Origin: an uncultured Gammaproteobacteria bacterium
Lineage (GTDB): Bacteria > Patescibacteriota > Microgenomatia > UBA10105 > UBA927
NCBI GenBank assembly: GCA_964527425.1
Contig: CAZGOA010000006.1
Coordinates: forward strand, 13,928 to 77,927
Direction: 5' to 3'
DNA: 64,000 bases
This document shows, piece by piece, positions 18,471 to 49,064 of this stretch. Within the stretch, counting starts at the first letter, position 1. The number at the start of each line of letters is the position of its first letter. A model generated the notes under the pieces. The model made no database searches and was not told the origin of the DNA. It saw nothing but the letters and a program-made list of their open reading frames with translations. Position numbers and translations under genes: made by a program.

Positions 18471-19772
18471 TTACAGATCTTCTACGATTACTTCGGAAGC
18501 TTTAATTCCTAACTCAACAGCATAGTTTGTTCCTCTATCCCAAGGATATATTGAATCCATATTAGCAATATATATTCCCTTAACAGGGGTTTTTAGGGGA
18601 GGTGCTTTGGTTGAATATTGTTGTGTATGAACCGGCTGTGCAAATGGTGCTTTAAATAGATATGAATTAATAATAGATGTAGGATTAAATCCAGAGTTTA
18701 TGCGTTTTATATAGGGATAAAAATGTTTCCAGAGTTTTTCTTTTGAATATGAAAGATACGGGTGTGATGGCGGAAGGTAATTTCCAATATACGTAATATG
18801 GTGATTAGCATAGTGTTTCTTATCCATGTAGTTGGTATGGGATACAACCGCTAAAAAAGGAAATGATCTATCAGTAATGTTTAGCCAATATACCTTGTCC
18901 AAAAGTGGTTGTTTGCTTTCTATGATTAATACCTGTGCATGCAAATGAGGGATAGTAAGTGGTTTTTTGAAATAAGACTGAGGTATGAACGGCACTATAC
19001 GTTGTGCAATAGGAGTGGGAGTCGTAAGCAGCACACAGTTTGTGGTTAATGATTTAGATTGATTGAAGTGAACTGTAAAGGTTGGCATATCAGCATTTGT
19101 ACTTTTTTGAGGAGTTATCTCTTTTACTGTGGTGTCAGTAAGAATAGTCCCGCCAGCCTGGTGTATATGGGTATGCAAACGATCAACAAGGGTTTGAAAA
19201 CCACCTTCAATATAGGCTAATGAAGGTGTTCTTTTTTTTATACGCGACCATAACCAGGAGGCGGTAATATCTGATGCGTAGGTTCCAAATTTACCTGTCA
19301 TTAATGGTTCCCAAATAACCTTCCATCCAGCCATTCCTCCAATTGATTGTGCAAGCGATTTTGCCGTTACCTGTTCGAGCGGTTTCCAGAAAGGATTACT
19401 TTTCATGAGTGCGATGAATAATCCTGTTCGTATTCGATCGAGAGGTGATAGAGCAGGAAACTGGAGGAGTGAGGATGCAGAATCCAATTGATACATCTGA
19501 TTGTTCCACAACGTAGCTGTTATTGGTCTCTTAATTATTAGTTTGTTATCTAACTCAAGCGTATGGATTAAGGCAAGTATTGCAGTATCATTGGTAAAAA
19601 GATGATGATATGCAGATTCTAAATGCCATGCCCATTGTTTATGTTTAAATCCCTGAGCTAAGCCTCCTAAAAAAGATTCTTTCTCAAGAAGCGTTATCGT
19701 ATGACCCTTGTTTATTAAAGTATACGCTGCGGTTAATCCCGTAAATCCGCCTCCAATAATTGTGATATGCAT
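18471..19772 (-). CDS. FAD/NAD(P)-binding oxidoreductase (amine-oxidase/CrtI/PPOX-like Rossmann flavoenzyme)
   Basis: 433 aa. The N-terminal dinucleotide-binding motif is IIGGGFTGLTAAYTL...LLEKESFLGGL. It is divergent from the UbiA-family gene. A UDP-galactopyranose-mutase-like role cannot be excluded. Confidence 0.6.
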   Translation of the reverse strand: MHITIIGGGFTGLTAAYTLINKGHTITLLEKESFLGGLAQGFKHKQWAWHLESAYHHLFTNDTAILALIHTLELDNKLIIKRPITATLWNNQMYQLDSASSLLQFPALSPLDRIRTGLFIALMKSNPFWKPLEQVTAKSLAQSIGGMAGWKVIWEPLMTGKFGTYASDITASWLWSRIKKRTPSLAYIEGGFQTLVDRLHTHIHQAGGTILTDTTVKEITPQKSTNADMPTFTVHFNQSKSLTTNCVLLTTPTPIAQRIVPFIPQSYFKKPLTIPHLHAQVLIIESKQPLLDKVYWLNITDRSFPFLAVVSHTNYMDKKHYANHHITYIGNYLPPSHPYLSYSKEKLWKHFYPYIKRINSGFNPTSIINSYLFKAPFAQPVHTQQYSTKAPPLKTPVKGIYIANMDSIYPWDRGTNYAVELGIKASEVIVEDL

Positions 19773-19895
19773 GTTGATGAGTATACGTCACAGATAGAGA
19801 AAAAATCGAGTAGAAATATTGATGAAATGTCATTATTGGAACTTTTTTAATGAGAAAGAGCTATACTCATGATATGATTCGTCAAAAGGGAAGTC

Positions 19896-20828
19896 ATGAA
19901 ACGCAATGTCTATCAATTTATTGAAGTGGCCAGACCCTGGTTGTGGGTTAAGAATTTAGGACTTCTGTTACCAGTTTTTTTAGCGGGGAGATTATTTGAT
20001 CCTTCAATTTTGCCAGTAGTGTTATTAGGTATTCTTGCTTTTTGTTTATTGTCTTCTTCAAATTATATTTTGAATGACATCCTTGATGCTGCTAAAGATA
20101 AAACACATCCTATAAAGAGACATAGACCTATAGCTAGTAATAGTATTACGGTTGAACAGGCAATTGCATTAGCATCATTGTTTGGATTTTTAGGTTTACT
20201 GATTGCTTTTTTTATAAATCAGACATTTTTTGTGCTTGCAACTGTATTTGTACTTATACATCATTTATCCTATTTCTTTTTTCGTAAGATGTCTGTTATT
20301 GATGTACTCGCTATTGGGAGTGGGTATTTACTCCGAGTTATGGCGGGGGAACAAGCTGCAGGTATAACAATGTCTGTCTGGTTATTTCTTGCTGTATTAT
20401 CAGGTTCACTGTTGATGGCAATTGGAAAACGTAGACATGAATTTACGCAAGTACGGGAAATTTCCAAGGTTAATAAAGATTTTCATCAAGATGACTTTAT
20501 TTACTCAGAAAAGATATTAGATTCTTATGTGGCAGTTTTTGCAAGTTCGACATTTATTGCATATTCGTATTTTACGTTTTTGATTGGTCCAACAATGGAA
20601 GGAATTTTTTTTAAAGGATATGCTGATTACATATTTCAACTTATAGGAAGAAAATGGATGATGATTACTGTGCCTTTTGTGCTATATGCTATTATGAGAT
20701 ACTTGCAGATTGTTTATTCAGGAAAAGGATTACTTTCTAAGGTCATATCAAATGACTATCCATTATTTATAGCGGGTATACTTTGGACTCTATCAGTATT
20801 AATTGTTGTATATGGTATAGGAGGATAA
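19896..20828 (+). CDS. UbiA-family prenyltransferase resembling decaprenyl-phosphate 5-phosphoribosyltransferase (DPPR synthase)
   Basis: 310 aa with about 8-9 TM helices. The first Asp-rich motif NDILDAAKD is followed by the HP-x-KR-x-RP-x-A signature (KTHPIKRHRPIASN) that I associate with the DPPR-synthase clade. Confidence 0.6.
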   Translation: MKRNVYQFIEVARPWLWVKNLGLLLPVFLAGRLFDPSILPVVLLGILAFCLLSSSNYILNDILDAAKDKTHPIKRHRPIASNSITVEQAIALASLFGFLGLLIAFFINQTFFVLATVFVLIHHLSYFFFRKMSVIDVLAIGSGYLLRVMAGEQAAGITMSVWLFLAVLSGSLLMAIGKRRHEFTQVREISKVNKDFHQDDFIYSEKILDSYVAVFASSTFIAYSYFTFLIGPTMEGIFFKGYADYIFQLIGRKWMMITVPFVLYAIMRYLQIVYSGKGLLSKVISNDYPLFIAGILWTLSVLIVVYGIGG

Positions 20829-21388
20829 TGGCAAAAAAAATTATACAAGTCGGCATAGATTTTGACGGTGTGTTAGCGTATAACCCATTTCGTGTTGTAA
20901 GAGCTCCAATAACGTATGTAAAGCGAAATATCTTAGGTGAGAATAAAACACGTTTTTATGTGCCGAAGACTCCTTTAGAGCGCATTGTCTGGGCAGTACT
21001 TCATGAATCCAGTGTTTTTCCTGCTCAGGGGGTAGACTTATTAAGAACGTTAGTAAAAGAAAAAAAAATTGAGGCGCATCTGGTAACGGCACGCTATAGT
21101 TTCTTACAACCACAGCTTTATACCTGGATTAACAAACACAATATTGAAAACTTATTTTCTTCAATAACAATAAATGAGAAAGATCAACAGCCCCATATAT
21201 ATAAGTCTAATATCGTAAAAGTAAAAAAGTTTGATTACTTTATAGAAGACAATTTAGATATTGTTAATCATATGGCTAAACTTCATCCTACAAATGTGTT
21301 ATGGATATATAACGTCATTGATAGAGGGTATCCATATCCGTATAAATTTCCTTATTTGCAGAAAGCATTGGAGTATATCGCTTCATGA
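20828..21388 (+). CDS. HAD-superfamily hydrolase (putative phosphatase)
   Basis: HAD motif I is IGIDFDGVLA and motif IV is FIEDNLD. The ATG overlaps the UbiA stop (TAATG) after GGAGG. Confidence 0.6.
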   Translation: MAKKIIQVGIDFDGVLAYNPFRVVRAPITYVKRNILGENKTRFYVPKTPLERIVWAVLHESSVFPAQGVDLLRTLVKEKKIEAHLVTARYSFLQPQLYTWINKHNIENLFSSITINEKDQQPHIYKSNIVKVKKFDYFIEDNLDIVNHMAKLHPTNVLWIYNVIDRGYPYPYKFPYLQKALEYIAS

Positions 21389-22515
21389 ATATAGTTATTG
21401 CATTAACATATTATACTCCGCACTGGACAGGACTTACGGAACATGCAAGGAGATTAGCAAAGGGGTTACTATCTAAAGGACATACAGTTACGGTAGTTTG
21501 TACTCAACATAAAAAAGAGCTACCAGTGTTTGAGGTTATGGATGGTGTAAACGTCATAAGGACACCTATTGTTGGCCGATTATCAAGAAGCGTTGTTTCA
21601 TTCGCGTTTATACCAACAGTAGCGTATTATGCAAAAAAAGCTGATATTGTGCTACTGTATACTCCACTTGCAGAGATACTTCCATTATCTGTTGTATTGC
21701 GTTTTTTGCAATTAAACATAATCATTGTTCATAACGGCGACCTATTACTACCGAAGGGAATATTAAACAGAGTCATAGAGTCTTTTTTTACTCTTTCAAT
21801 GCGAATAAGTGGGATAATGGTTCAGGGAATTATTAGTTATTCAGATGACTATACTCATCACTCACGTTTTCTAAAACTTTTCAAAAGTAAAACAGTATCA
21901 ATTCTGCCTTTATTTCCGGCATTACAACATGCTCCTTCAAAAAACATAGATTATCCTGTAAAAGCTGGTCCTATTGTAGGGTTTGCCGGCAGGTTTGTTG
22001 AAGAAAAAGGTTTTGATGTATTGTTGGACGCAATCCCTATAGTTGCAAACACATACCCAGACGTTCTCTTTATGTTTGCAGGAGAAAAACATATTGAGTA
22101 CGAAGCCTTTTATGAAACCAATAGAAGTAAGATAGAGAATCTGAAAAACTATTTACTTTTACTTGGTTTGTTAAGTCAGGAAGAAATGCAATCATTTTAT
22201 AACGCTTTAGATGTATTCGTGCTGCCTTCCAGAAGTGATTGTTTGGCCTTTGTTCAGGTTGAAGCGTTGTTATCAGACGTGCCTGTTGTAGCTACAGATA
22301 TTCCAGGAGCGAGAATTGCTGTTCAAAAAACAGGAATGGGATTATTAGTACAAGCTGAACATGCTGCAGACTTAGCCCAGGGTATTATCAAGGTATATAA
22401 AAGTAGATATCCATCGAAGAAAGTAAAAAAATCGGCTCAAAAAGTATTTGACTATGCTAAAACATTAGATGAATATAACACCTATCTTATGACTATGGCA
22501 CGAAAGAACATATGA
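21385..22515 (+). CDS. Glycosyltransferase family 4 (GT-B, retaining)
   Basis: 376 aa. The GT4 C-terminal domain has the EX7E-type region (FVLPSRSDCLAFVQVEALLSDVPVVATDIPG). The ATGA overlap with the HAD gene is present. Confidence 0.8.
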   Translation: MNIVIALTYYTPHWTGLTEHARRLAKGLLSKGHTVTVVCTQHKKELPVFEVMDGVNVIRTPIVGRLSRSVVSFAFIPTVAYYAKKADIVLLYTPLAEILPLSVVLRFLQLNIIIVHNGDLLLPKGILNRVIESFFTLSMRISGIMVQGIISYSDDYTHHSRFLKLFKSKTVSILPLFPALQHAPSKNIDYPVKAGPIVGFAGRFVEEKGFDVLLDAIPIVANTYPDVLFMFAGEKHIEYEAFYETNRSKIENLKNYLLLLGLLSQEEMQSFYNALDVFVLPSRSDCLAFVQVEALLSDVPVVATDIPGARIAVQKTGMGLLVQAEHAADLAQGIIKVYKSRYPSKKVKKSAQKVFDYAKTLDEYNTYLMTMARKNI

Positions 22516-23360
22516 ATGTATATCGTAAAAGAAGTAATGCATTCTTATCCAAAGAACTTGATCCTGCTTTTGCTAGGAGGGCATCAATTATTGCACGTAA
22601 TTTAGAATTAATCAAAAACGGACATCTATTAGAAATAGGATGTGGAAGAGGGTATTATGAAGGGTTTTTGTCCTATGTTTATCCTTCTTTGCGCATTACA
22701 GCGATTGATCAAAACACTACATATCTTACTACTGCCAAACAATACACGCAATCTAAGCGGGTAACATTTGAAGTAGGTGATGCACTTCATTTGAAGTATA
22801 AACGGAACAGTTTTAATGGCATTCTTGCCAGTGAAGTACTAGAACATCTTTCTGATGATGCGAAAGCCTTGGAAGAAATGTATAGGGTTGTAAAGCCTGG
22901 TGGAATTGTAATGATTACAGTTCCCAATGCATCATATCCTTTATTGTGGGACCCTCTCAATTATGTGCTTGAACGATTTGCAGGTAGTCATATACCAAAA
23001 GATATTTGGTGGTTGGCTGGTATTTGGGCTGATCATGTTAGGCTTTATACAAAACAGCAATTAGTAACAGTTTGTCAACGTGCAGGGTTTACCATTGAAT
23101 CCATATATTTTTCTACGCATTACTGTATTCCTTTTTCTCATTTTCTTTTATATGGAATAGGAAAGAATATTGTAGAATCTGGATTATTGCCAGATTTTTA
23201 TCGATTTAATCAACTGGCAAAGCCTTCATCTTTTTTTAGATTGGTTAAATCTATGCTGTATCTTCGAGATCATTTAAATAACGATTCTCAGTCAGAATAC
23301 CAATCTACTGTAAATATTATTTTGAAATTACGAAAAGCTTATTGGTTTAATAGGACGTAG
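22512..23360 (+). CDS. Class I SAM-dependent methyltransferase
   Basis: 282 aa. Motif I is LLEIGCGRGYY, the acidic motif II is ITAIDQN, and VVKPGGIVMITVPN follows. The ATGA overlap with the GT4 gene is present. Confidence 0.8.
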   Translation: MNVYRKRSNAFLSKELDPAFARRASIIARNLELIKNGHLLEIGCGRGYYEGFLSYVYPSLRITAIDQNTTYLTTAKQYTQSKRVTFEVGDALHLKYKRNSFNGILASEVLEHLSDDAKALEEMYRVVKPGGIVMITVPNASYPLLWDPLNYVLERFAGSHIPKDIWWLAGIWADHVRLYTKQQLVTVCQRAGFTIESIYFSTHYCIPFSHFLLYGIGKNIVESGLLPDFYRFNQLAKPSSFFRLVKSMLYLRDHLNNDSQSEYQSTVNIILKLRKAYWFNRT

Positions 23361-25267
23361 GGAGGGTTGTATTCTGGAGTCTTTTTAAAAATAGTAACTT
23401 TTGGATGATCGTACACTGTAAAACTTTCTTCTGCATAATCATCAATAATTACGATTCCTTTTGAGCAGTGGTTATCTAGTATTTCTTTAAACGCAGAATT
23501 ATCAGGGGTTATGTGTTTGTGAAGTAAAGTATCAACGCTACCATAAGAAAAAAACGGAACAGATATACAACCAGTAATAAAAGGTAAGTGTATTGTTGGA
23601 CGAGAGACAAATTGCGCTACAGGTTCAAATCCCAATTGATTAGAAAAAAGTAAATAATAAAAAACTGCTGTTTGCGGAAATTTATTAGTTGCTGATGTAA
23701 TTGATCCATACACTCTGTTACTCGAGATGATAAGATACTCTATCCTATTGAGCTTTTGTATGATTGTTTCCCATTTCTGAGAATCTTCTGGCGCAAAAAG
23801 TTCCAGTTCTTCTGTTTGATATTGCGCGTTGGCGCCAACATGTTCTAGATTTAGTGGAAGTCCATCATCCCAGTGTTCACTACTTAAGACTGAATTGTTG
23901 GGTATAGTATTGTATATCCACGTAGATGCCTGTACACGAGTATGCGGTTGAGTATATATTGACATATACGCAATCGGCCAACTACTAGCACTTAGTAGCA
24001 AAAATCCCATGATAATGTTTATGATTTTTTTAGGTTTAGTAGATAATAGATGTCCAATAGCAATACCACATAAAATAGAAAGAGAAGGTAGTATAGGCCA
24101 GAAGTATCGTAACGGCATGACATATTGAATACTTTGATACGCAAAAAAAGTGAATACTGCACTAAACGGTATTAGTAGAATGACTGGTGGATAGAGTTCT
24201 TGTATAGTATGTGTTTTTAACAGGTGTACTGTAACATTGTGTGATTTATACCTGAAGTGTTTTATATGCTGTGCTATTTTTTTAATAGCAAGAAGTAAAG
24301 AAATACCACTAATAATTGTTATCGGAATGCCTACTCCCCAAAATACTAATTGAAAAAGAGGAAAGATAATGGAAGTAGTATTAATCCATTGTACTCCAGG
24401 GGGAAACCAGGCATCGGGGGTATTAAAACTTTGTAATTCTTTTAAGTTATTAAGTACTTTTGGATTAATCTTATATAAAGATTCAGCAGTAAATAAATAT
24501 GGGTGGAAAAATCTAAAAAGACAAAAAAAGAAAAAACAAAAAAATAATATAAAATTAAATAATTGAATACTTTTATTTGTGTTATTTCCAAAAGAAATAT
24601 GAAAGAATAAATATAATATGAGAGTTGATCCTATAGGTGCAGCAGATATTTTTGCTGCTAAGGCTAGGGCTAAACAACAACCTGCTAGTATTCCAGTTTT
24701 CCAAGATGGATTAAACGTTAAAAAATAGAGTAATGCAGTTATGCTTACGATCACGTAAGGATCAACAGTTGCAAAATGAGCCAATTGTATTGGAAGAACG
24801 AGTATTGAATATATAAACATGGCAAATAAACCGGAGAGAATAGGGAATAGGTTGTTATGATAAGAAATACGATTAACTATACGTTTAGTTGTAAAGAATA
24901 CTAATAGAACAGTTAGGGTGTCTATACTTGCACTGAGAAACCTTCCAATTTCATGAATGTTTCCATACACTTGTCTATCCGTTAGTTGTGCAAATGCTTT
25001 AATTACAAGTAGAGGCCATGTTCCATAAACAAAAAAATTAAATCCAATAGTATGAGGGTTAAGTGGAGAAGAATTGGTATCAAGATATTCTTGTAGAGAA
25101 GAAGGCCATTTCATTGAAGTAATAACCATTGTAAGAAAACGTTCATCTGGATGAAGATAATTCCCCTGGTCCCAATTTAATCCGGTGAAACGGAAAGTTA
25201 TTGCAATTATAAGAATTACAATAAACGTAAATTTAGCTAAATGATGATGTATTTTGTTTACTTGCAT
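23339..25267 (-). CDS. GT-C-fold polytopic membrane glycosyltransferase candidate (PMT_2/ArnT-like)
   Basis: 642 aa with more than 12 TM helices. TM1 is followed by FRFTGLNWDQGNYLHPDERF, a DE motif in the first extracytoplasmic loop as in PMT/ArnT enzymes. Confidence 0.55.
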   Translation of the reverse strand: MQVNKIHHHLAKFTFIVILIIAITFRFTGLNWDQGNYLHPDERFLTMVITSMKWPSSLQEYLDTNSSPLNPHTIGFNFFVYGTWPLLVIKAFAQLTDRQVYGNIHEIGRFLSASIDTLTVLLVFFTTKRIVNRISYHNNLFPILSGLFAMFIYSILVLPIQLAHFATVDPYVIVSITALLYFLTFNPSWKTGILAGCCLALALAAKISAAPIGSTLILYLFFHISFGNNTNKSIQLFNFILFFCFFFFCLFRFFHPYLFTAESLYKINPKVLNNLKELQSFNTPDAWFPPGVQWINTTSIIFPLFQLVFWGVGIPITIISGISLLLAIKKIAQHIKHFRYKSHNVTVHLLKTHTIQELYPPVILLIPFSAVFTFFAYQSIQYVMPLRYFWPILPSLSILCGIAIGHLLSTKPKKIINIIMGFLLLSASSWPIAYMSIYTQPHTRVQASTWIYNTIPNNSVLSSEHWDDGLPLNLEHVGANAQYQTEELELFAPEDSQKWETIIQKLNRIEYLIISSNRVYGSITSATNKFPQTAVFYYLLFSNQLGFEPVAQFVSRPTIHLPFITGCISVPFFSYGSVDTLLHKHITPDNSAFKEILDNHCSKGIVIIDDYAEESFTVYDHPKVTIFKKTPEYNPPYVLLNQ

Positions 25268-26994
25268 AGAGAACTAACAGAATAGATTGTAATACCTGAT
25301 TCTGAGTTAGAATACATCTGACTGAATTGGTTTTTCCATAATGGGCTTATTGGTTTTAGAAATTCTTCTGGAGAATTATTCACTTCTACATACGATATGT
25401 GCTCCTGATTAAGTAATTGGCATACTTCTATCTTATCTTCTGATTGAAAAATTTCTTTCACAAGTGATTCTCTCTTATATGTGTCATAACCCGCTGACCA
25501 GGTAAAAAATGCATATCCATTATATATTTTTCTGCCCGCAGTAGAGGCAGGGTGATAAAACCAAGTGCTATTTAAGATGATTGCATCTTTAGGAATTGTA
25601 TCTCGTATAAAAGTAGCGTCTTTGTTTTTGGGAATATCAGTTAATGAGATTGTGTAATCATTTTTTATGGCAAAAAAGTCAATGAGCCCCGAGAGCGTTA
25701 GAATGATAAATAAAAGCGGTATTGTTACAAGGAATAATCGTAATGTTTTCTGTTTTGTGAACCATTCGGTTGCCAACACTAGGGCATATGACGAGTAAAG
25801 TGAGATGCATATTGTAAATAAGTTAATAAATTTATGATTATTGATCATATCTGTAGAAAATCTATATATATTAGGGAGTAAAAAAATAACAAGAACAGGC
25901 AGTGCTAGCCATCGTATACGTTTCGGAGCAAGAATCATGCCTATTGGGAATAGTAAGATATGAAGACCCAGATTATGCATCCAGAATTCAAGGAATGTTT
26001 TTATAGCAAGAGGTTTTTCTGACAAATAACCCGGTTCAAATACGGGGGTTCCACCTGTTTGAGCAATGGTATAAAAAAGTACTATCCATGGTATGGAAAT
26101 GAAAAATCCTATGATTAAAGATACTCTACTAGGTGGATGAAAGAGAAAAAATCCAATTGCAAAAATAACGGCTGGAACTAATGCTGCTTGATTTAAAAAT
26201 AGTAGGAGAGAGAATAACAATCCTATACATACAGAAACAGGTATTAATGAAGTGACAACCGGAAAGATTTTTTCAATATAGTTTGACGTGTGTTTTTTTC
26301 GCTGCAATGATAATAGAAGAATAATAATTGCCATCACCAAGGCGAATGATGCTGCTAAATGGCGTTGATTAGTATAGACATTTAAATTAGTAAATGCAGT
26401 TACGAGACTATGATCCCAAGGTCCAAAAGACGGAAAATCTTTAACTGAAGGAATATTTTTTATTGCCCCCAAAATAGTGTCATGCTTATTGAAATAGTTA
26501 ATAAAAGAAAGTGATCCATTAAAGAAAAAAAATACTATCGTTAATACACCTACACTTCTTCGCTGGAACAAAAGAACGGCAAGTTTATAGAGTAAAACGA
26601 GTAAAAGAAATAATCCAAGTGCGCTTGGGATATTTAATGCGTAATCAATGCGAACTCCAATTTTTTCTAATAAACCCACAATACTATAAAAAAGAAAATG
26701 ATATTTTATTTTTTCTCCAGGGAAGAGGGGATATTCTGGTGGCCAGTTTGATCCCAGAGAAAACGAACGTATCAAAGGAATATGTGCACCAAAGTCACTC
26801 CATACTTTGGAACCTAATACCATTTCATTTTCGCTTACGTTGTATCTAAGTGTGTGAAACATTAACCATAAACAACAAACAAATAGTAACGAGAAAAAGC
26901 CAAGTTCAAGTATCGTTAATAACCGATGATTACTAAAATGAAGACGCATGTGATGTATTGTATCTGTAGATTCGGTTGTAAAACTACTCCACAA
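25258..26994 (-). CDS. Large polytopic membrane protein (GT-C-like candidate)
   Basis: 578 aa with more than 12 TM helices. The first loop contains NWPPEYPLFPGEKIKYHFLFY. The gene overlaps the previous one by 10 nt. Confidence 0.4.
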   Translation of the reverse strand: MWSSFTTESTDTIHHMRLHFSNHRLLTILELGFFSLLFVCCLWLMFHTLRYNVSENEMVLGSKVWSDFGAHIPLIRSFSLGSNWPPEYPLFPGEKIKYHFLFYSIVGLLEKIGVRIDYALNIPSALGLFLLLVLLYKLAVLLFQRRSVGVLTIVFFFFNGSLSFINYFNKHDTILGAIKNIPSVKDFPSFGPWDHSLVTAFTNLNVYTNQRHLAASFALVMAIIILLLSLQRKKHTSNYIEKIFPVVTSLIPVSVCIGLLFSLLLFLNQAALVPAVIFAIGFFLFHPPSRVSLIIGFFISIPWIVLFYTIAQTGGTPVFEPGYLSEKPLAIKTFLEFWMHNLGLHILLFPIGMILAPKRIRWLALPVLVIFLLPNIYRFSTDMINNHKFINLFTICISLYSSYALVLATEWFTKQKTLRLFLVTIPLLFIILTLSGLIDFFAIKNDYTISLTDIPKNKDATFIRDTIPKDAIILNSTWFYHPASTAGRKIYNGYAFFTWSAGYDTYKRESLVKEIFQSEDKIEVCQLLNQEHISYVEVNNSPEEFLKPISPLWKNQFSQMYSNSESGITIYSVSSLCK

Positions 26995-27063: not shown

Positions 27064-29445
27064 ATGTTTAATCAAGTATTCATTCATGACCTCCCGTTTA
27101 TTGTTACCTGGTGGGCAGTACTTTTTTTGATTGGAACAGCTGCTTTTCCTTTAACTCGACGGTTATTCTCTTCCTGGTGGGATCAGGGATATATCTTAAG
27201 CAAGTCTGTGGGATTAGCAGGAGTTTCCTGGATTGTTTGGCAGCTCGGGAGTTATAAAATTGTTCCTTTTTCACTGATTTCGATACTATTTTCGATAATT
27301 TTATTATTTTGTATAGGAATACTCATCACTATTTCGCTGAAAAAGCCCATGAATATTCAATGGAATAAGATTTTTTTCTTGGAGTTACTATTTTTTTGTG
27401 CGTTTATTTCCTGGTCTTTTGTAAAAGGTCACGAAGCAGATATCCGTAGTCTTGAAAAATTTATGGATTATGGATTTTCTAGAACAATTCAACAATCCGA
27501 TTATTTTCCACCTCCTGATATGTGGTATGCAGGCGGAACAATTAATTACTATTACTTTGGTCACTTAACCCAGGCGGTATTATCAACACTATCAGGAATT
27601 CATTTAAGCTATGGCTATAACTTAATGTTGGCTACACTTTTTGCATTCTGTTTTTCTATGAGTTTTGGAATTGGTGTACAGCTTTACCTAACGTATATAC
27701 AGAATGCTAAGAAACAATTTTCGAAAAAACATTTATTTTTTGCTTTATGTACAGGAATCCTTGCGGCATATCTGGTTAGCTTATCTGGAAACATGCAAAC
27801 AATATATGCATTTACTCAAGGGTATACAGGGGATAATCCACCACCGTTCTGGACTGTTTTTTGGAAACCAGACGAGTTTTTATCAAATGTATCTCAAGGG
27901 TTAAATACCTACTGGTATGCTAACGCGACTCGATTTATTCCTTTTACCATACATGAATTTCCAAGTTATTCTTTTGTAGTATCTGATAATCATGGGCATG
28001 TTTTTAATATACCATTTACTTTATTAGCCTTAGCATCGCTTTTTACCATATTTGTGATACGGCAACAGCAGCGTGATCGTGCATACAATATAGATATTCG
28101 AAGTGTATTTAAACCGGATACATTCAAGAATTCTATTGGATTGGTATTAAAAGATTTACTTCCTTTTATATTATTTGGGTTATTATGTGGTGTTCTGCTT
28201 ATGACAAATGCTCTTGATGGTCCTATTTATTTGGGTATTTTTTTCGTTTTACTCCTGTTTCAATACTCTCGGTATGAAGTGTTAAGCCTTTATTGGTTAG
28301 TCGAGAAGGGTATTACATTCTTGGCTGTGATAGGAGGATTTATTATTTCGGCATTTCCTTTCTTAATTAATTTTACCTCTTTTGCTTCTGGATTAGCGTT
28401 AAATTGTCCTCCTGCATTGTTAGCTAATAGTCAGATTGGTCCATTTCTTTTTGAAACAGTAGATAAATGTCAAAAATCTCCATTATGGATGATGTGGCTA
28501 TTATGGGGATTTTTCTGGTTTATGGGGATAGTGTTATTACTGCGGCAAGTAAGATTTATTCGATTAAGATTTATTCCCTTGTCTATAAAAACTACGAAGA
28601 CAGAATCATTTCTTACTTTGCTCTTCTTCTTATCGTTAGGGTTAATATTTTTTGCAGAATTCTTTTATTTTAAAGATATTTATCCTGCTCATTTCAGGAG
28701 TAATACAATGTTTAAGCTGGGTTATCAAGCATTTATTATCTGCTCTATACTTGCAGCGTTTGTGACCATTCAGGTATTTGTACAACAGACTCAAACAAGA
28801 CTACAGAAATTTATTAAATTAGTTTGTATAGTACTCATTGTTCCTCAACTACTGCTTGTAAGTGTGTATCCTTTATTTTCTGTTAAATCATATTTTGGAA
28901 ATTTAGAACAATATAAAGGGTTAAATGGTTTGGGGTGGTTTTCTAGAGATTTTCCTGATGACTATAAGGCAATGAGATGGTTGGAAGATCATGTTGATCC
29001 TAAAAACGATCAATCATCACATCAATGGCTTCGTGAGCTAGCAGTTGCAGATATGCATGTGCATGATAATTTTTTTACGTCTCATATATCTCATATACCA
29101 ACAATATTGGAAGCTGATGGAGATAGTTATACCGATTATAATAGAATGTCTGTTTTTACCGGATTGCCAACTATTATTGGATGGGGGGTTCATGAATGGC
29201 TCTGGAGAGGAAGTTATGATATTGTGGCACCTCGTAAAGAAGAAGTGAGAGAATTGTATGAAACCGGTAGTATTACCAGAATGAAAGAACTTATTGAAAA
29301 GTATAATATTCAGTATGTTGTTGTTGGTGCGTTAGAGCGTCAAAAATTTGTCGCTATGCCTGAATATAGATTTTTGTCTGTAGGAAAATTGGTCTATCAA
29401 TCTGGTTTAACGGAAATATATGCCCTTGACAAAATGAGAGAGTAG
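27064..29445 (+). CDS. DUF2298/Chlor_Arch_YYY-family integral membrane protein
   Basis: 793 aa and highly hydrophobic. The diagnostic YYYxG motif is present as GGTINYYYFGH. The C-terminal soluble domain is about 150 aa. Confidence 0.6.
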   Translation: MFNQVFIHDLPFIVTWWAVLFLIGTAAFPLTRRLFSSWWDQGYILSKSVGLAGVSWIVWQLGSYKIVPFSLISILFSIILLFCIGILITISLKKPMNIQWNKIFFLELLFFCAFISWSFVKGHEADIRSLEKFMDYGFSRTIQQSDYFPPPDMWYAGGTINYYYFGHLTQAVLSTLSGIHLSYGYNLMLATLFAFCFSMSFGIGVQLYLTYIQNAKKQFSKKHLFFALCTGILAAYLVSLSGNMQTIYAFTQGYTGDNPPPFWTVFWKPDEFLSNVSQGLNTYWYANATRFIPFTIHEFPSYSFVVSDNHGHVFNIPFTLLALASLFTIFVIRQQQRDRAYNIDIRSVFKPDTFKNSIGLVLKDLLPFILFGLLCGVLLMTNALDGPIYLGIFFVLLLFQYSRYEVLSLYWLVEKGITFLAVIGGFIISAFPFLINFTSFASGLALNCPPALLANSQIGPFLFETVDKCQKSPLWMMWLLWGFFWFMGIVLLLRQVRFIRLRFIPLSIKTTKTESFLTLLFFLSLGLIFFAEFFYFKDIYPAHFRSNTMFKLGYQAFIICSILAAFVTIQVFVQQTQTRLQKFIKLVCIVLIVPQLLLVSVYPLFSVKSYFGNLEQYKGLNGLGWFSRDFPDDYKAMRWLEDHVDPKNDQSSHQWLRELAVADMHVHDNFFTSHISHIPTILEADGDSYTDYNRMSVFTGLPTIIGWGVHEWLWRGSYDIVAPRKEEVRELYETGSITRMKELIEKYNIQYVVVGALERQKFVAMPEYRFLSVGKLVYQSGLTEIYALDKMRE

Positions 29446-32395: not shown

Positions 32396-32466
32396 GGGCC
32401 GTTAGTACAGTGGTAATACACCGCATTCGCATTGCGGATACGGGAGTTCGATTCTCCCACGGTCCA
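32396..32466 (+). tRNA. tRNA-Ala (anticodon CGC)
   Basis: The cloverleaf was folded by hand. Acceptor stem GGGCCGT/ACGGTCC carries the G3:U70 Ala identity pair. Anticodon stem CCGCA/TGCGG encloses loop TTCGCAT. T-arm GGGAG-TTCGATT-CTCCC. No encoded CCA. Confidence 0.8.
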
Positions 32467-32504
32467 CATAGTTACAGTATTAAGTAACGGATTATTTTGC
32501 AAAC

Positions 32505-32575
32505 GGGCCCGTAGTACACCGGTAGTATAACTCCATGGCATGGAGTAGAAAGGGGTTCGATTCCCCTCGGGTCCA
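32505..32575 (+). tRNA. tRNA-Ala (anticodon GGC)
   Basis: Acceptor stem GGGCCCG/CGGGTCC carries G3:U70. Anticodon stem ACTCC/GGAGT encloses loop ATGGCAT. T-arm AGGGG-TTCGATT-CCCCT. No encoded CCA. Confidence 0.8.
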
Positions 32576-35397: not shown

Positions 35398-37314
35398 TTA
35401 ATTATTGTATAGTTTTGGATTTAACCAATTGGTGTGATCATCTCTATTACTATCTCCTGCATCTTTCGTGATTAGAGTGAGTGTTTTAACTCCAACTACA
35501 GAAACCTTTGCGTGTTTTGGCAAATCAAATCTTCCCATTTTTTCAGAGATAAATAGAGGCTTGTTATCACCCCAAATTTCAAAAATAGCACTTGCACCAG
35601 TTCCTGCTGTAGTATCAATTCCAAAGTCAGTAGAAAATTGATCAAATTTCTGGGCTAAGTCATACCGTATTTCACTATTGGCATGAGTACCAATACCTTT
35701 TTTATAAAAGACATACTGTGTAGATAACCAAGTCCATGATTTTGGATCATATCCACCATTTACTGGCATATCTTTAACACGTTTTCCGAATTGCTGACTA
35801 CTATACCATGGTGTAAATGAACTTAATGGAATAGGTTTTTTAGTGATATAGGAAAGATTTGCAGAAGTAATCATAACAATAAATAATAAACCAGAGAGAA
35901 GGAAAGGAAAAAAAGTAATAGTTTTTCGAAAGAATAGTAAGAAAAGTATAAAACTGGTCATAAACATAAACGATACTGTCATAGTTGGAAAAGGAGTTAA
36001 AAACCATCCTTGTAAGATTTGAAATGTATTCGCAGGGTAATTAGCGGCAAACGCAGAGTGTAAGTTATAAAAATACAATACAGAGAGAATTACGTAACTC
36101 ATAATGAATATTGTTCTTCTTTTGTGTTCTAAAAAGGGAACAATGAATAAGAGAAACGCAGTTAGGGGATATGCGTAACGCTCATGTGATTGGGTAAGCA
36201 GCAAGAAAAACCCAGCATTAACTACTGAAAGTCCAATAAAAAAACGAAGAGTATTGTTTTTATCAAGATACTGATCCTCAGGTTGATCTTCAGAGTTTGT
36301 AAGTTTTTTTCCAATCAATATTGAGAATATGGTGGGATAAATAATTGATGTGATAGCCAGTAAATAGCTTGAAGAAAAGAGCATAACACCTAAATTATGT
36401 GCCGTTGTAATACCAATGGAAAGTAATTTATCTGATACTCCCATTCCATCTCCCTGGGCTGCAATCCACCACATGTTATACGCATGTAATGACATATAAG
36501 GAAAATAATCATAGTTATCAACAAGAGATCCAATTATGCGAGAACGGTTATTTGATACAAAGAATTCAATATTTAATCCTACAAAACCCGTAATTGCTCC
36601 CAAGAGTGAAACTAATACGTTTTTAAAACCATATTGCTGCCATATAAACGTAAACAATAATGGTCCATAAATCATATTTTGAAGTTTTGTCATCATCGCA
36701 AGCATAAAAATAAATCCAGCGATAAAAAGTTTTTTGCGGGCTATTGCGGCGAATGAGAGGAGAAAAAATATTACTCCCAGACTGTCTACTTGTCCCCACC
36801 ACGCACTATCCATGACAGTGACAGGATTCAGTAGAAATAAGGCAGCCATAACAAAAAATAACTGTTTACTAGAAAGATCAAATAGTGTTAACAATGTCCT
36901 TTTTTTCTTTTTTAGCTGTTCGGGAAATCCAAATTTTGCTGGGTTATTACCAATAAACAGTATTAGTGCTGCAATCCCAAAATCAGCGAGTATGGCAGGA
37001 ATTTTTGAAGCAAAAAGAAATCGGATATTCGTATTTGACCAGTATTGTTCAAAGTTATGAGGATCACCCCCGAGTATTCTGTACAGTGAAACCATTCCAC
37101 CTAGTGTATAAGCAAATGGAGTAGGATAATTATTATTTGTATTTAATATACTCCATACAGCACCTTTGTCAGCAGCAGCCAAACCCCAACCTTTCCAGAA
37201 AGCTACATCTGCTTCAAAACCAGGATTTGGGATAAAGGCTAGCCTTAGAATAAATGCAAGGGTAAAAAGAATAATAACCGGTAGATTTTTTTTCATACGA
37301 TACAATTTATTCAT
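35398..37314 (-). CDS. Polytopic membrane protein (GT-C-like) with a C-terminal NPCBM-like carbohydrate-binding domain
   Basis: 638 aa. The N-terminal loop is GFEADVAFWKGWG. After the last TM, the ~110-aa tail has GIGTHANSEIRYDL...GIDTTAG...AIFEIWGDNKPLF...VSVVGVKTLTLITKDAGDSNRDDHTNW, matching the NPCBM/NEW2 consensus as remembered. Confidence 0.5.
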   Translation of the reverse strand: MNKLYRMKKNLPVIILFTLAFILRLAFIPNPGFEADVAFWKGWGLAAADKGAVWSILNTNNNYPTPFAYTLGGMVSLYRILGGDPHNFEQYWSNTNIRFLFASKIPAILADFGIAALILFIGNNPAKFGFPEQLKKKKRTLLTLFDLSSKQLFFVMAALFLLNPVTVMDSAWWGQVDSLGVIFFLLSFAAIARKKLFIAGFIFMLAMMTKLQNMIYGPLLFTFIWQQYGFKNVLVSLLGAITGFVGLNIEFFVSNNRSRIIGSLVDNYDYFPYMSLHAYNMWWIAAQGDGMGVSDKLLSIGITTAHNLGVMLFSSSYLLAITSIIYPTIFSILIGKKLTNSEDQPEDQYLDKNNTLRFFIGLSVVNAGFFLLLTQSHERYAYPLTAFLLFIVPFLEHKRRTIFIMSYVILSVLYFYNLHSAFAANYPANTFQILQGWFLTPFPTMTVSFMFMTSFILFLLFFRKTITFFPFLLSGLLFIVMITSANLSYITKKPIPLSSFTPWYSSQQFGKRVKDMPVNGGYDPKSWTWLSTQYVFYKKGIGTHANSEIRYDLAQKFDQFSTDFGIDTTAGTGASAIFEIWGDNKPLFISEKMGRFDLPKHAKVSVVGVKTLTLITKDAGDSNRDDHTNWLNPKLYNN

Positions 37315-37339: not shown

Positions 37340-39067
37340 TCATCTATCTAATTGGATTATGACTTCAGTAACTGAGTCAGGAATTTCTATCGGATAATTG
37401 CCTGTTTTTAAAAACTTAGTTTCGTTGTCCATCACGTTTTCTCCATTAACAGTAATTGATTGATTTGGAGGAGTTGTTTGCAGTTTATAGGTCTCTTCAA
37501 TAACAACAGGAAGAATGTTCGGATCAAATTGACTTAATAGTCCTCCTTCGTAGTTAGTTCTGGCACATACTCCTTGATTACATGTATATCTGTATCCAAC
37601 ACTATATATTTTTTTATATGGACTTTGAAGATAGTTTGATCGAATAAACGATAAATGTGGTTCAGGAACTAACCAAAATGCATAGCCACTTCTATCTAAA
37701 ACGATAAATTTGGTTTTATTTTGAATTAATGATTCTGTTAGTGGGGGAGGGAGTGGTTTAATCGTTTGAATAAAATTTGCGAATCGATGACAACACAGTA
37801 CATATCCAGGTGGTCGGTAAATATATGATCCAGTCATATCATAGACAGTTTCATTAGATTTAATGTGTGCTACGACATCTCTAATAACTTGCATTTGCTC
37901 TTGACTACTATTTTCCGGAAGTACACGACTTTTGAATTGTTCATAAAATGATACGAAAGAGAGTAAACAAACGAAGAAAAGTATTATTACATTGGTATTC
38001 TTAAATCGAAAAAGGCGGATACTATATCCGACAAATATAGCAGCAGGTATTGAGCCGATCATCATGACAGGTACAAAATATTGAACAAATGGTGTAGGAA
38101 ACAGGATTAGATATGATACAGCCCCTGAAATGAATAAGGAAAAAAACCAAAAGGCTTTCCATCTCTTGTCAATTGCAAGCAGTAACGTTCCTCCGATCAT
38201 TGCAAACAGTAAAAACGTATTATACGCCCAGGGGATACTTGGTCCCTCATAGGCAACATAGACAAATTGCCAGGGGGTTAAGGCTAAAAATGGAGAAAAT
38301 TTAATGATCTGAAGAGCATAAATATCTTTTGTTGTTCTTATAATAGCGTCCAATCCGATTAGTAACGCACCATTTATTATTAAGTAGAGTAAGAATATGA
38401 CAACAGGTACGCTGCCTCCGAGGATAAAGAAAGCCCATTGCTTCAGTGGTAACGCTGAAATTTTTTTGGTTTTAATCAATCGAAGCAGAGGAGTATAGAT
38501 TAGTAAAAAACCTAACGCTGGAATTGCAAATATCATTTTTTGAAATGTCATCATTGATAATCCAAGCATTAAACCAGATATAAACAATGTTTTAGAGGTA
38601 TGAGGTAAAACAAATAACATCCAAGTAGAAATAATAAAAAATAACACCATTAATACGTCAGGCCTTACTTCTATCCCTTTATCAATCATAATTGGGGAAA
38701 CAATGAGAAAAAGTACAGTTAATAATGCAGATATCTTATGTTTCGTTAAAGAACGTGTTAAATGATAGAGAAGTACTGCGCAAAGACTAAATAGAACAAA
38801 CATGATAATACGAGAAAAAATGATAGCGGCTGGTGAATGTGGAAGTAAAAAAATAGGTAATAAGAACCATTGAAAAAAAGGAATATGATAAATAAAAAAA
38901 TCTTTATACGGAACTTGGCCGATAACAAAATGATATGCCCAGTGTATATGCGCAAACTCGTCAGGGTCAAAATACCGATATATCGATAGATATAACCGCA
39001 TCAATCCCGTTATGCCAATAGAAAAAAGAAGCAATAATCGTAGTAATAAAGATTGACTCATCTTCAT
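37340..39067 (-). CDS. GT-C-fold polytopic membrane glycosyltransferase candidate (PMT_2/ArnT-like)
   Basis: 575 aa. TM1 is followed by YRYFDPDEFAHIHWAYHF, a DE motif in loop 1. There are more than 11 TM helices and a C-terminal soluble ~150 aa. Confidence 0.55.
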   Translation of the reverse strand: MKMSQSLLLRLLLLFSIGITGLMRLYLSIYRYFDPDEFAHIHWAYHFVIGQVPYKDFFIYHIPFFQWFLLPIFLLPHSPAAIIFSRIIMFVLFSLCAVLLYHLTRSLTKHKISALLTVLFLIVSPIMIDKGIEVRPDVLMVLFFIISTWMLFVLPHTSKTLFISGLMLGLSMMTFQKMIFAIPALGFLLIYTPLLRLIKTKKISALPLKQWAFFILGGSVPVVIFLLYLIINGALLIGLDAIIRTTKDIYALQIIKFSPFLALTPWQFVYVAYEGPSIPWAYNTFLLFAMIGGTLLLAIDKRWKAFWFFSLFISGAVSYLILFPTPFVQYFVPVMMIGSIPAAIFVGYSIRLFRFKNTNVIILFFVCLLSFVSFYEQFKSRVLPENSSQEQMQVIRDVVAHIKSNETVYDMTGSYIYRPPGYVLCCHRFANFIQTIKPLPPPLTESLIQNKTKFIVLDRSGYAFWLVPEPHLSFIRSNYLQSPYKKIYSVGYRYTCNQGVCARTNYEGGLLSQFDPNILPVVIEETYKLQTTPPNQSITVNGENVMDNETKFLKTGNYPIEIPDSVTEVIIQLDR

Positions 39068-49063: not shown

Positions 49064-49064
49064 T

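Follow-up and report, generated by a model that had tools for sequence, protein, structure and literature searches.

Gene content of the locus

Within the window, that is, the whole stretch of 64,000 nucleotides analysed here, a group of glycosylation genes extends from 18.4 to 29.4 kb and is flanked by radA/PIN and rho/M23 genes (Table 1). The five genes that an initial annotation had placed at 18471-23360 were all found as described. Four of them, encoding a UbiA-superfamily protein, a small HAD-like protein (HADl), a GT4 glycosyltransferase and a methyltransferase, form one overlapping operon; the genes are coupled by TAATG and ATGA overlaps, the ATGA type joining the methyltransferase to GT4, which bears out the earlier placing of GT4 and methyltransferase downstream in the same operon as UbiA and HADl. 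The flavoprotein gene is divergent, an arrangement that recurs in 12 related loci with gaps of 74-2451 bp.

Table 1. Genes and features of the glycosylation locus, in window coordinates
Feature	Position	Strand	Basis
FAD flavoprotein, NCBIfam PRK07233, amine-oxidase/PPOX/phytoene-desaturase fold, soluble	18471..19772	-	Pfam, NCBIfam, Foldseek
Divergent intergenic region, flavoprotein/UbiA operon, 123 bp	19773..19895	.	Sequence read
UbiA-superfamily polyprenyl-phosphate 5-phosphoribosyltransferase, DPPRS/PPPRS type, type-A paralogue	19896..20828	+	PDB, NCBIfam, residues
HADl, HAD-superfamily phosphatase-like protein, 186 aa	20828..21388	+	HAD fold and motifs
GT4-family (GT-B) glycosyltransferase	21385..22515	+	Pfam Glycos_transf_1 2e-25
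Class I SAM-dependent methyltransferase, variable operon member	22512..23360	+	Pfam Methyltransf_11 1e-20
TM642, polytopic membrane protein, remote PMT_2 (GT-C) homologue	23339..25267	-	hhalign, orthologues
TM578, polytopic membrane protein, remote DUF2298 homologue	25258..26994	-	hhalign
DUF2298/chlor_Arch_YYY polytopic membrane protein	27064..29445	+	Pfam DUF2298 7e-90; TIGR03662 435 bits

Three membrane proteins follow, and they are near-universal across the 17 HADl loci that are fully flanked. TM642 (about 10 hydrophobic segments) occurs in 17/17 and the DUF2298/chlor_Arch_YYY protein (about 13) in 16/17; the methyltransferase is present in only five. TM642 itself has no Pfam match; its orthologues have PMT/PMT_2 matches, and its family profile aligns with the window's PMT_2 protein (hhalign 94.6%, 280 columns). 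TM578 aligns with the DUF2298 family (hhalign 97.2%, E 3e-11, 510 columns), and in UbiA-less loci its gene stands directly after that of the flavoprotein.

A UbiA protein of the DPPRS type

The earlier assignment of the UbiA protein to the DPPRS type is upheld. Its best PDB match is Rv3806c (E 7e-22), and the NCBIfam DPPRS models give 167 and 163 bits. Quinone, heme, chlorophyll and ether-lipid prenyltransferases, the first three named at the outset as the contrary case, are set apart by score: models of other UbiA families reach at most 42 bits. The protein has about seven hydrophobic segments and retains the equivalents of Rv3806c R22, K28, Y70, N73, D77, K87, R90 and Y157. In Rv3806c the 5-phosphate is contacted by K28, Y70 and Y157, and the window protein keeps all three of these contacts together with those to Mg and pyrophosphate. 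The Rv3806c structure paper states that other UbiA enzymes do not conserve the phosphoribose-binding sites. Two paralogues, type A (the window copy) and type B, which adjoins a PMT_2 gene, could be compared: R22, K28, Y70, N73, D77 and R90 are kept in 14/14 type-A and 77/77 type-B sequences, while at the K87 position 12 type-A proteins have K and two have R, and at the Y157 position 13 have Y and one has F. Homologues that carry DPPRS or HAD-UbiA annotations in haloarchaea, Lactococcus, Burkholderia and Rhizobium have the PRPP-contact residues too.

That the protein is instead an ordinary prenyltransferase (for quinone, heme O, chlorophyll or archaeal-type ether lipid), in a cluster unrelated to PRPP, is very improbable. 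Such a reading can draw on the generic NDxxDxxxD motif of the superfamily and on a score below the DPPRS equivalog cutoffs (167 versus 234 bits), but it has against it the gap between the model scores, a PDB match to DGGGP synthase of just E 1.6e-3, the Rv3806c-specific 5-phosphate and pyrophosphate contacts, and a neighbourhood of glycosyltransferases with no quinone, heme or lipid genes. The shortfall against the cutoffs does count against the pathway proposed below, as do the Tyr138 position, at which type A is unlike all other DPPRS-type sequences, and two further type-A changes, Gln135 to His and Lys143 to Arg. Judged by its sequence, this membrane enzyme of an ultra-small, uncultured CPR bacterium probably attaches ribose phosphate to a lipid carrier that serves in building sugar chains at the cell surface.

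HADl and its constant partner

HADl has a genuine HAD fold with all four HAD motifs, no Pfam match, and belongs to a small subfamily whose members were found in this analysis only in CPR sequences. It had been proposed to remove the 5-phosphate from the UbiA product. Fold, motifs, translational coupling to UbiA and the precedents for a HAD phosphatase beside this type of synthase agree with this role, but the linkage across loci is to GT4: this gene lies directly 3' of HADl in 54/57 loci, whereas UbiA directly precedes HADl in only 8/48, which weighs against the pathway. At least nine HADl-GT4 fusion proteins occur, in several lineages and with the domain order HAD-N/GT4-C, against no HADl-UbiA fusion. 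The constant partner of HADl is GT4, not UbiA. Also to be counted against the pathway is that HADl is not a phosphoribose phosphatase of the PF12710 type, hhalign similarity being confined to motif I; its subfamily differs from the HAD phosphoribose phosphatases of published or annotated UbiA-type systems.

It is a real possibility, although we would put it short of even, that HADl and GT4 form a self-contained pair. GT4 would glycosylate a phosphorylated acceptor that HADl then dephosphorylates, as in sucrose-phosphate synthase/phosphatase, or HADl would supply an acceptor such as the diacylglycerol of a glycolipid anchor; either way HADl would act on something other than the UbiA product, whose ribose 5-phosphate would be retained or removed by another enzyme. 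Besides the gene order, the fusions and the lack of a family-level relationship to known phosphoribose phosphatases, three observations favour such a pair: one HADl-GT4 fusion adjoins only a PMT_2 gene, locus L171 has UDP-glucose dehydrogenase and epimerase genes beside HADl-GT4, and in about 74 type-B UbiA loci HADl is absent within 10 kb. Against NCBIfam, every GT4 match fell far under cutoff; no named GT4 family or SPS/SPP sequence was matched above it.

The PRK07233 flavoprotein

The flavoprotein scores 394 bits with PRK07233 (cutoff 252) and 1e-22 with Pfam Amino_oxidase. The best Foldseek matches of its AF2 model (pLDDT 92.8) are PPOX 2ive (8e-28) and rice phytoene desaturase 5mog (TM 0.85). 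Wherever enough upstream sequence is available, it is the divergent neighbour of the HAD-linked, type-A UbiA (12/12 loci), and locus L144 has an independent arrangement, FADox-UbiA-TM-TM. All four annotated proteobacterial PRK07233 genes lie inside HAD-UbiA-DprE1-DprE2-SDR-PRK07233-GtrA operons; the PRK07233 flavoprotein is linked to DPPRS-type pathways in two phyla.

The initial annotation had envisaged a convergent, decaprenyl-P-arabinose-like route in which UbiA makes polyprenyl-P-ribose-5-P, the HAD protein takes off the 5-phosphate, and the flavoprotein stands in for DprE1 (and perhaps DprE2), epimerising C2' to give polyprenyl-P-arabinofuranose. The UbiA assignment and the HAD fold hold, the flavoprotein always stands beside type-A UbiA, Pfam and NCBIfam profiles detected no DprE1 or DprE2 homologue in the CPR module, and the family is tied to such operons in another phylum. 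In those operons, however, PRK07233 coexists with DprE1 and DprE2 and therefore has another job there. Its fold places it in the PPOX/phytoene-desaturase/amine-oxidase class, in which the known enzymes oxidise C-C or C-N bonds, not sugar alcohols; the CPR module encodes no SDR reductase; and the flavoprotein is also conserved where UbiA is not nearby. Given the coexistence, the fold and the lack of a partner reductase gene nearby, 2'-epimerisation to arabinose is speculation and a role as DprE1 substitute is unsupported; the route as a whole appears improbable.

A tentative possibility, rather unlikely in our view, is that PRK07233 acts on the polyprenyl carrier, by saturating, desaturating or isomerising an isoprene unit, or generically on polyprenyl-P-sugars and not specifically on the pentose. 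The best TM-scores are with phytoene desaturase (0.84-0.85), and the next-best NCBIfam models, HpnE and CrtI/CrtD, are isoprenoid enzymes. In CPR bacteria the flavoprotein is tied more widely to GT-C/DUF2298 membrane proteins than to UbiA, heading an operon with DUF2298-like and PMT-like membrane proteins in UbiA-less loci; in Embleya a homologue of 30% identity, a putative PRK07233 member, is encoded behind a DegT-GT2 (ArnC-like) pair, and UbiA is absent from its surroundings. The many invariant polar and charged residues (clusters of R, K, H, D and N) speak against a carrier substrate, and the proteobacterial position between sugar epimerases and GtrA suits a sugar-modifying step equally.

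A proposed pathway

The explanation we favour, by a modest margin over even, is UbiA-type lipid-linked pentose synthesis within a module for envelope glycosylation that is conserved in Microgenomates-type CPR bacteria, into which a second, divergent DPPRS-type copy (type A) was recruited in this lineage. The overlapping, coupled genes count for it; the occurrence of the whole module, intact, without an adjacent UbiA in other loci counts against it, as does the lack of any GtrA, SMR or MATE flippase in the CPR module. The neighbourhood is read most coherently as making a polyprenyl-P-pentose donor for GT-C-like membrane proteins.

What was observed are the protein families, the conserved residues, the folds and the linkage and fusion of genes; the chemical steps, their order and the nature of the final sugar are all inferred. 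On the cytoplasmic face, UbiA would transfer 5-phosphoribose from PRPP to polyprenyl phosphate, as its conserved substrate contacts suggest. Loss of the 5-phosphate would follow, with the translationally coupled HADl as the most probable catalyst, a role that is only moderately likely because HADl mainly partners GT4. Further processing of the lipid-linked pentose, or of its carrier, may fall to the PRK07233 flavoprotein, with GT4 and the methyltransferase as possible contributors. Outside the membrane, the PMT-like GT-C protein, the two DUF2298-type proteins or both would then consume the product.

Comparison with known systems

Rv3806c of M. tuberculosis is the same type of first-step enzyme, sharing the UbiA fold, NDxxDxxxD and the PRPP 5-phosphate and pyrophosphate contacts, but identity is only about 30%, and the window paralogue departs from it at Tyr138, Gln135 and Lys143. 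As in the mycobacterial decaprenyl-P-arabinose pathway (Rv3806c, Rv3807c, DprE1, DprE2, GT-C arabinosyltransferases), the downstream users are likely of GT-C type; in contrast, the CPR phosphatase candidate is HAD and not PAP2, and VAO-type DprE1 and DprE2 are missing, with an arabinose product unsupported. Sucrose-phosphate synthase and phosphatase are a GT4 synthase and HAD phosphatase pair, and what such pairs share with HADl-GT4 is the coupling or fusion of a GT4 with a HAD phosphatase; the CPR proteins differ in their HAD-N/GT4-C order and in their setting among membrane glycosyltransferases, not compatible-solute genes.

The exchange of PAP2 for HAD, first taken as a sign of convergence, is not new, as HAD phosphatases fused or adjacent to UbiA-type synthases have been published or annotated. 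In the Lactococcus plasmid pLLF27D polysaccharide cluster, known from annotation only (533-aa membrane protein, DPPRS, stand-alone HAD-IB phosphatase, GtrA), a separate gene for a HAD phosphatase of about 190 aa follows the DPPRS-type UbiA at once, as in the CPR module; its HAD is PF12710 (7.5e-21), unlike HADl, and its GtrA has no CPR counterpart. A UbiA-type synthase, a HAD phosphatase and a GT-C have already been published as a system: the three-component pentofuranose system of Citrobacter youngae comprises ORF15 (HAD-PRP and UbiA-type PPPRS), a MATE flippase and a GT136 GT-C (Kelly et al., PNAS 2024, PMC11127046). Both systems have a PRPP-dependent UbiA-type synthase, a HAD-superfamily phosphatase, GT-C-type transferase(s) and optional auxiliary sugar-modifying enzymes. 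In the CPR module, however, the phosphatase is a separate gene of another HAD subfamily with GT4 as primary partner, no flippase gene is recognisable, and the auxiliary enzyme is the PRK07233 flavoprotein instead of SDR or DprE1/E2. Its membrane proteins are PMT-like and DUF2298-like, and homology between them and the proteobacterial ones is undetectable.

Proteobacterial plasmid operons known from annotation only, of the form PRK08238 (HAD-UbiA)-DprE1-DprE2-NAD-epimerase-PRK07233-GtrA (Burkholderia stagnalis, Rhizobium tumorigenes, Agrobacterium salinitolerans, Rhodobacteraceae SC52), likewise join the flavoprotein with a DPPRS-type UbiA, sometimes with an adjacent class I methyltransferase. 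They add DprE1, DprE2, an extra SDR and GtrA, all missing from the CPR module. The flavoproteins are of one family: PRK07233 gives 503-548 bits for three proteobacterial proteins (the Agrobacterium copy left out), and hhalign aligns them with the CPR protein at 100% probability over 416 columns, with only 24-28% identity. The flavoprotein and the glycosyltransferase-tied phosphatase are variant companions within an already published pathway type, and the chief point of interest is the link of PRK07233 to that pathway.

Gene organisation of the module

The five genes that the initial annotation had read as a possible pathway to a lipid-linked pentose donor were all recovered in place by gene calls on the window, and the calls from other assemblies of the same organism are concordant. 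The GT4 glycosyltransferase and the methyltransferase do follow UbiA and the HAD-like protein (HADl) in one transcriptional unit, as had been proposed: the four genes form a single tightly packed operon, in which the UbiA stop and HADl start overlap as TAATG with a GGAGG upstream, and the HADl-GT4 and GT4-methyltransferase junctions are ATGA overlaps. The flavoprotein gene is divergent from this operon, with a gap of 123 bp. The G+C content of the window is low, at about 35%, and the nearest homologues of its genes are found in Woesebacteria, Gottesmanbacteria and other Microgenomates-group CPR (ultra-small bacteria). Two tRNA genes lie between an M23 peptidase gene and the next membrane-protein block.

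Coordinates of the module genes, of other features of the window and of homologous loci on other contigs (L-numbers)
Feature	Sequence	Position	Strand	Remarks
Flavoprotein (FADox)	window	18471-19772	-	PRK07233
UbiA	window	19896-20828	+	type A
HADl	window	20828-21388	+	186 aa
GT4	window	21385-22515	+
Methyltransferase (MT)	window	22512-23360	+
TM642	window	23339-25267	-	642 aa
TM578	window	25258-26994	-	578 aa
DUF2298 protein	window	27064-29445	+
tRNA genes	window	32396-32575		two genes
Glycosylation island	window	32873-61456
GT87-like/NPCBM membrane protein	window	35398-37314	-
PMT_2 GT-C gene	window	37340-39067	-
PMT_2 GT-C gene	window	53730-55334	+
Unannotated membrane proteins	window	39895-41694, 44962-46596, 46606-48201, 55338-56939		530-600 aa, mutually related
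Small GT2 genes	window	42364-43062, 59373-60338
NDP-sugar modification genes	window	48266-51471, 58072-61456
FADox-UbiA-TM-TM	L144	17652-19816		co-directional
HADl-GT4 operon	L171	10001-13916		Gottesmanbacteria MAG
184-198-aa gene	L005	7338-7934		Gottesmanbacteria
184-198-aa gene	L177	9339-9893		Gottesmanbacteria
DPPRS homologue, PHP-domain protein	L167	5700-8617		Haloterrigena plasmid
PRK07233-like flavoprotein locus	L176	6702-10326		Embleya sp. NBC_00888
Entire module	nzgw408 contig	89-110 kb		Gottesmanbacteria, 1.22-Mb contig
Type-B UbiA	nzgw408 contig	329-350 kb		only UbiA seen

UbiA is a phosphoribosyltransferase-type protein

Pfam recognises only a generic UbiA domain in the window protein (1.8e-18). 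Among the NCBIfam models, three for decaprenyl-phosphate phosphoribosyltransferase (DPPRS) and PRK08238, the HAD-UbiA fusion, score 112-167 bits, while the quinone, heme, chlorophyll and ether-lipid UbiA families each reach at most 42 bits; the DPPRS models are the top-scoring families by a margin of more than 120 bits, with their equivalog cutoffs missed (167 bits vs 234, 163 vs 207). A sequence search of the PDB returns Rv3806c of M. tuberculosis first (E 7e-22) and DGGGP synthase next (1.6e-3), and Gottesmanbacteria homologues are already named "decaprenyl-phosphate phosphoribosyltransferase" by NCBI.

According to the Rv3806c structure paper, R22, K87, R90, K143 and Y138 contact the pyrophosphate, N73 and D77 the Mg, Q135 the ribose and K28, Y70 and Y157 the 5-phosphate, and other UbiA enzymes do not conserve the phosphoribose-binding sites. 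When 91 CPR sequences are aligned to Rv3806c, residues R22, K28, Y70, N73, D74, D77, D81 and R90 are invariant, K87 varies only between K and R and Y157 only between Y and F; the first Asp-rich motif NDxxDxxxD, which coordinates Mg2+ in Rv3806c, is likewise invariant across the 91 sequences (N60, D61, D64, D68). Four reference homologues, from a haloarchaeon, Lactococcus, Burkholderia and Rhizobium, conserve these residues in the same way. The 5-phosphate contacts correspond to K19, Y57 and Y144 of the window protein and are kept in both CPR paralogues, described below as types A and B, and in the four references, and R13, K74 and R77 are the retained pyrophosphate contacts R22, K87 and R90.

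The family scores, the match to Rv3806c and the 5-phosphate contacts bear out the DPPRS-type assignment of the initial annotation; because of them and of the other conserved PRPP contacts, a clustering with quinone, heme or chlorophyll enzymes, which it had named as the outcome that would count against it, does not hold. Three other readings, a carotenoid or lycopene-elongase cluster, a heme O synthase with a protoporphyrinogen oxidase (PPOX), and an ether-lipid synthase with its reductase, run counter to the UbiA family scores and residue pattern. Judged by its sequence, the protein is quite probably a PRPP-dependent lipid-pentose synthase.

Two UbiA paralogues in CPR bacteria

A scan for UbiA with one genome per species returned 80 loci, and the window neighbourhood is shared only by the five closest of them (50-60% identical); the other approximately 74 (40-49% identical) have no module gene within 10 kb, one example being the arrangement Glycos_transf_4-UbiA-PMT_2 (L001/L002). 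In a neighbour-joining tree of 182 columns rooted on Rv3806c, the HAD-linked proteins (type A) fall into essentially one clade, separate from the commoner type B, and a 10-kb search around the type-B loci revealed neither a phosphatase nor a flavoprotein. Both types occur on one contig (L010 and L066) and, in a second assembly, on separate contigs (L012, L029); a search for a second UbiA gene in the window found none. Type B retains Q135, Y138 and K143, whereas type A has His, Ser/Leu and Arg there, and the window protein and most type-A sequences show Q135 to H, Y138 to S (with a Tyr one residue on) and K143 to R; in type A these positions are H122, S125/Y126 and R130. On these changes, the window holds the more divergent of the two paralogues. 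The more canonical type B (L001, L011-L086) is widespread in Gottesmanbacteria and Levyibacteria. Many contigs whose UbiA is 41-49% identical to that of the window are titled "uncultured Gammaproteobacteria bacterium"; this is the same identity range as in loci titled Gottesmanbacteria, and the labels look wrong.

A HAD-like protein whose partner is GT4

HADl has no match in Pfam, NCBIfam, a phmmer search of the PDB or a PDB profile search, and its fold was recognised by structure prediction alone: a Rossmannoid HAD fold in which motifs I (DxD), II (T/S), III (K) and IV (E/D-D) are all present. It is a candidate for a true HAD phosphatase and could reasonably serve as 5-phosphatase on the UbiA product of the window operon; that it does remove the 5-phosphate is a possibility to which we give slightly less than even weight. 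The known phosphoribose phosphatases belong to PF12710, to which HADl does not; in Rhizobium and Burkholderia they form one protein with UbiA (PRK08238), and on a Lactococcus plasmid a separate gene of this type follows DPPRS. Membership of HADl in that family was rejected, as hhalign gave only motif-I similarity to the Lactococcus stand-alone and the R. etli fused HAD. The use of a HAD protein instead of PAP2 had been taken as one mark of a convergent pathway. This feature is not novel: a HAD phosphatase working with a UbiA-type synthase is a known variation, represented by HAD-PRP in the system of Kelly et al. (PNAS 2024, PMC11127046) and by annotated loci.

The HADl family is tiny, with 195 representatives among 1.84 billion proteins. 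At least nine of these are fusions of an N-terminal HADl to a C-terminal GT4 (seven complete, two truncated); a HADl-UbiA fusion was sought among the 1.84 billion representatives and none was found, the fusions scanned being to GT4. One HADl-GT4 fusion checked on its contig adjoins a PMT_2 gene only. In a set of 80 metagenomic loci built around HADl, the next gene is GT4 in 54 of the 57 with enough sequence, UbiA precedes HADl in 8 of 48 and a divergent DUF2298 gene does so in 19 of 48. The evolutionary partner of HADl is GT4, and the HAD-GT4 unit is a further uncharacterised two-step module. In a Gottesmanbacteria MAG (L171), the HADl-GT4 operon continues with an NAD-dependent epimerase/dehydratase and a UDP-glucose/GDP-mannose dehydrogenase, which suggests a uronic-acid- or pentose-nucleotide donor for GT4.

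The PRK07233 flavoprotein

The flavoprotein passes the 252-bit cutoff of PRK07233, a family annotated "hypothetical protein", with 394 bits over residues 1-431. Its AlphaFold model (pLDDT 92.8) is closest to protoporphyrinogen oxidases (E 8e-28), with further matches to plant phytoene desaturase (TM 0.84-0.85) and to two function-unassigned archaeal proteins; VAO-type enzymes and UDP-galactopyranose mutase are absent from the top 50 structural matches. On this last result and on the lack of a GLF Pfam match, a mutase-like role appears unlikely. The protein is an Amino_oxidase/PRK07233 member and not DprE1, whose model NF053785 matches a Burkholderia neighbour and not the PRK07233 family. A pair of VAO-type DprE1 oxidase and SDR reductase was not found in the CPR module, which has no SDR gene.

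Wherever a type-A UbiA locus has at least 1.5 kb upstream, the flavoprotein is divergently adjacent (12/12). In one locus with a basal UbiA (L144) both genes point the same way, two PMT-like genes come after them, and a HADl-GT4-MT operon lies at a distance of 7 kb. The flavoprotein family exceeds that of HADl (3,728 vs 329 search matches) and often has no UbiA nearby; in such loci its gene is the first of an operon, FADox-TM578-TM642, that runs divergently from DUF2298. The Gottesmanbacteria contig nzgw408 carries the entire module, and the only UbiA seen on it is of type B and distant. Two Gottesmanbacteria loci (L005, L177) have, between flavoprotein and DUF2298, a gene of 184-198 aa whose product contains a single hydrophobic segment; the window lacks such a gene.

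When plasmid records were searched by tblastn with the flavoprotein, eight full-length homologues (24-30% identity) were obtained. Four annotated ones were examined, those of Burkholderia stagnalis, Rhizobium tumorigenes, Agrobacterium salinitolerans and a Rhodobacteraceae strain, and all of them lie in one common operon type: HAD-UbiA fusion (PRK08238, 635 bits in Burkholderia, the only one scored), DprE1 homologue, DprE2-like SDR, NAD-dependent epimerase, PRK07233 (503-548 bits in the three proteins scored) and GtrA. The Rhizobium and Rhodobacteraceae records continue after GtrA with large membrane proteins; in Agrobacterium such proteins are encoded on the other strand, and the Burkholderia record has no annotated one downstream of GtrA. 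The CPR family aligns with the Rhizobium protein at 100% hhalign probability over 416 columns. These operons independently tie PRK07233 to PRPP-dependent lipid-pentose pathways. They also show that the flavoprotein is not simply a replacement of DprE1/E2, as the initial annotation had suggested, because it co-occurs with both. We lean slightly towards a role of the CPR flavoprotein in the UbiA lipid-pentose pathway, and 2'-epimerisation to arabinose as that role is highly improbable.

In the actinomycete Embleya sp. NBC_00888 the genes for a DegT aminotransferase and a 325-aa GT2 precede that for a 30%-identical PRK07233-like flavoprotein, with two GMC oxidoreductases downstream and no UbiA within 9 kb; this context hints at a broader role on polyprenyl-P-sugars. 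A literature search found no publication on this CPR module or on PRK07233 in such pathways, and the supplement of Kelly et al. 2024 (PMC11127046) does not mention an FAD oxidoreductase. PRK07233 is a candidate for the "more elaborate" pentofuranose diversification noted there without explanation, and Rhizobium and Burkholderia, being cultivable, make it accessible to genetics. PRPP-dependent lipid-pentose operons of both CPR and Proteobacteria are now linked to this uncharacterised flavoprotein family.

Membrane proteins of the module and the neighbouring island

TM642 is a remote homologue of PMT_2 (GT-C; hhalign 94.6%) and TM578 of DUF2298 (97.2%, 510 columns), and TM642, TM578 and DUF2298 are present in 14-17 of the 17 fully flanked HADl loci. 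PDB sequence searches with the DUF2298 protein and TM642 gave no match. Comparison of the CPR membrane proteins with the large hypothetical ones encoded in the proteobacterial, Lactococcus and R. etli loci showed no homology, and none was seen for TM642 against the GT136-context proteins of the proteobacterial loci. DUF2298-type proteins are likely users of the lipid-linked donor. The module genes include no MATE, GtrA or SMR Pfam family and no small multi-TM ORF that could serve as flippase; as candidate flippases, small ORFs at 17.7-18.5 kb were rejected, and so was the gene of 184-198 aa that adjoins the flavoprotein at other loci, since neither is multi-TM.

Further along the window lies a large glycosylation island with PMT_2 genes, mutually related unannotated membrane proteins and small GT2 genes. 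One of its membrane proteins begins with a weakly GT87-like region and carries an NPCBM glycan-binding domain (1e-29) at its C terminus; this combination of GT-C and carbohydrate-binding module is reminiscent of ORF12 of the Citrobacter system and of EmbC. Two regions hold NDP-sugar modification genes (nucleotidyltransferase, 4,6-dehydratase, formyltransferase-GNAT fusion), with two DegT aminotransferases flanking a 321-aa GT2, and resemble an Arn-like pathway whose product would be a lipid-linked amino sugar with a formyl or acetyl group.

Overall reading and comparison with known systems

The gene arrangement first described is confirmed and its interpretation is partly supported. Taken together, the results allow a speculative reading, which we consider unlikely to hold as a whole: PRK07233 would represent a class of enzymes, so far overlooked, that acts in the metabolism of lipid-linked pentofuranose (or of polyprenyl-P-sugars), and in CPR, where DprE1/E2 are lacking, one such enzyme would work with a UbiA altered in its substrate site and a novel HAD-GT4 unit; the donor would be neither plain ribofuranose nor derived from a known epimerase route, and would feed DUF2298-type proteins, which, if all this were true, would be a new kind of glycosyltransferase. 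CPR bacteria have a minimal metabolism, and despite this the window spends tens of kilobases on membrane glycosyltransferases. Identifying the lipid-linked donors of these enzymes would help to explain how CPR episymbionts build their envelopes.

In the three-component system of Kelly et al. (PNAS 2024, PMC11127046), PRPP is the substrate from which a HAD-PRP/UbiA-type synthase produces undecaprenyl-P-ribofuranose; this is flipped by a MATE protein and then serves a GT-C, with SDR or DprE1/E2 epimerases diversifying the pentose. That system has a dedicated flippase, whereas the CPR module has no recognisable one; its HAD is of the PRP type, whereas HADl shares the HAD fold and motifs but belongs to another subfamily. 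Where the DprE1/DprE2 pair combines a VAO-type FAD oxidase with an SDR, the CPR module has PRK07233 as its sole redox enzyme. Phosphatase variants of this pathway type are seen in the annotated Lactococcus locus, with its stand-alone HAD, and on a Haloterrigena plasmid, where a PHP-domain protein follows the haloarchaeal DPPRS homologue; the latter is the best plasmid match to the window UbiA (32% identity), and divergently upstream of it lie an SDR epimerase and two GT39/PMT genes. The basic scheme of UbiA-type synthase, phosphatase and GT-C is already established, and what is new here is the CPR setting with two UbiA paralogues, a distinct HAD subfamily coupled to GT4, a module with no redox enzyme other than the PRK07233 flavoprotein and, likely, DUF2298-type proteins at the receiving end.
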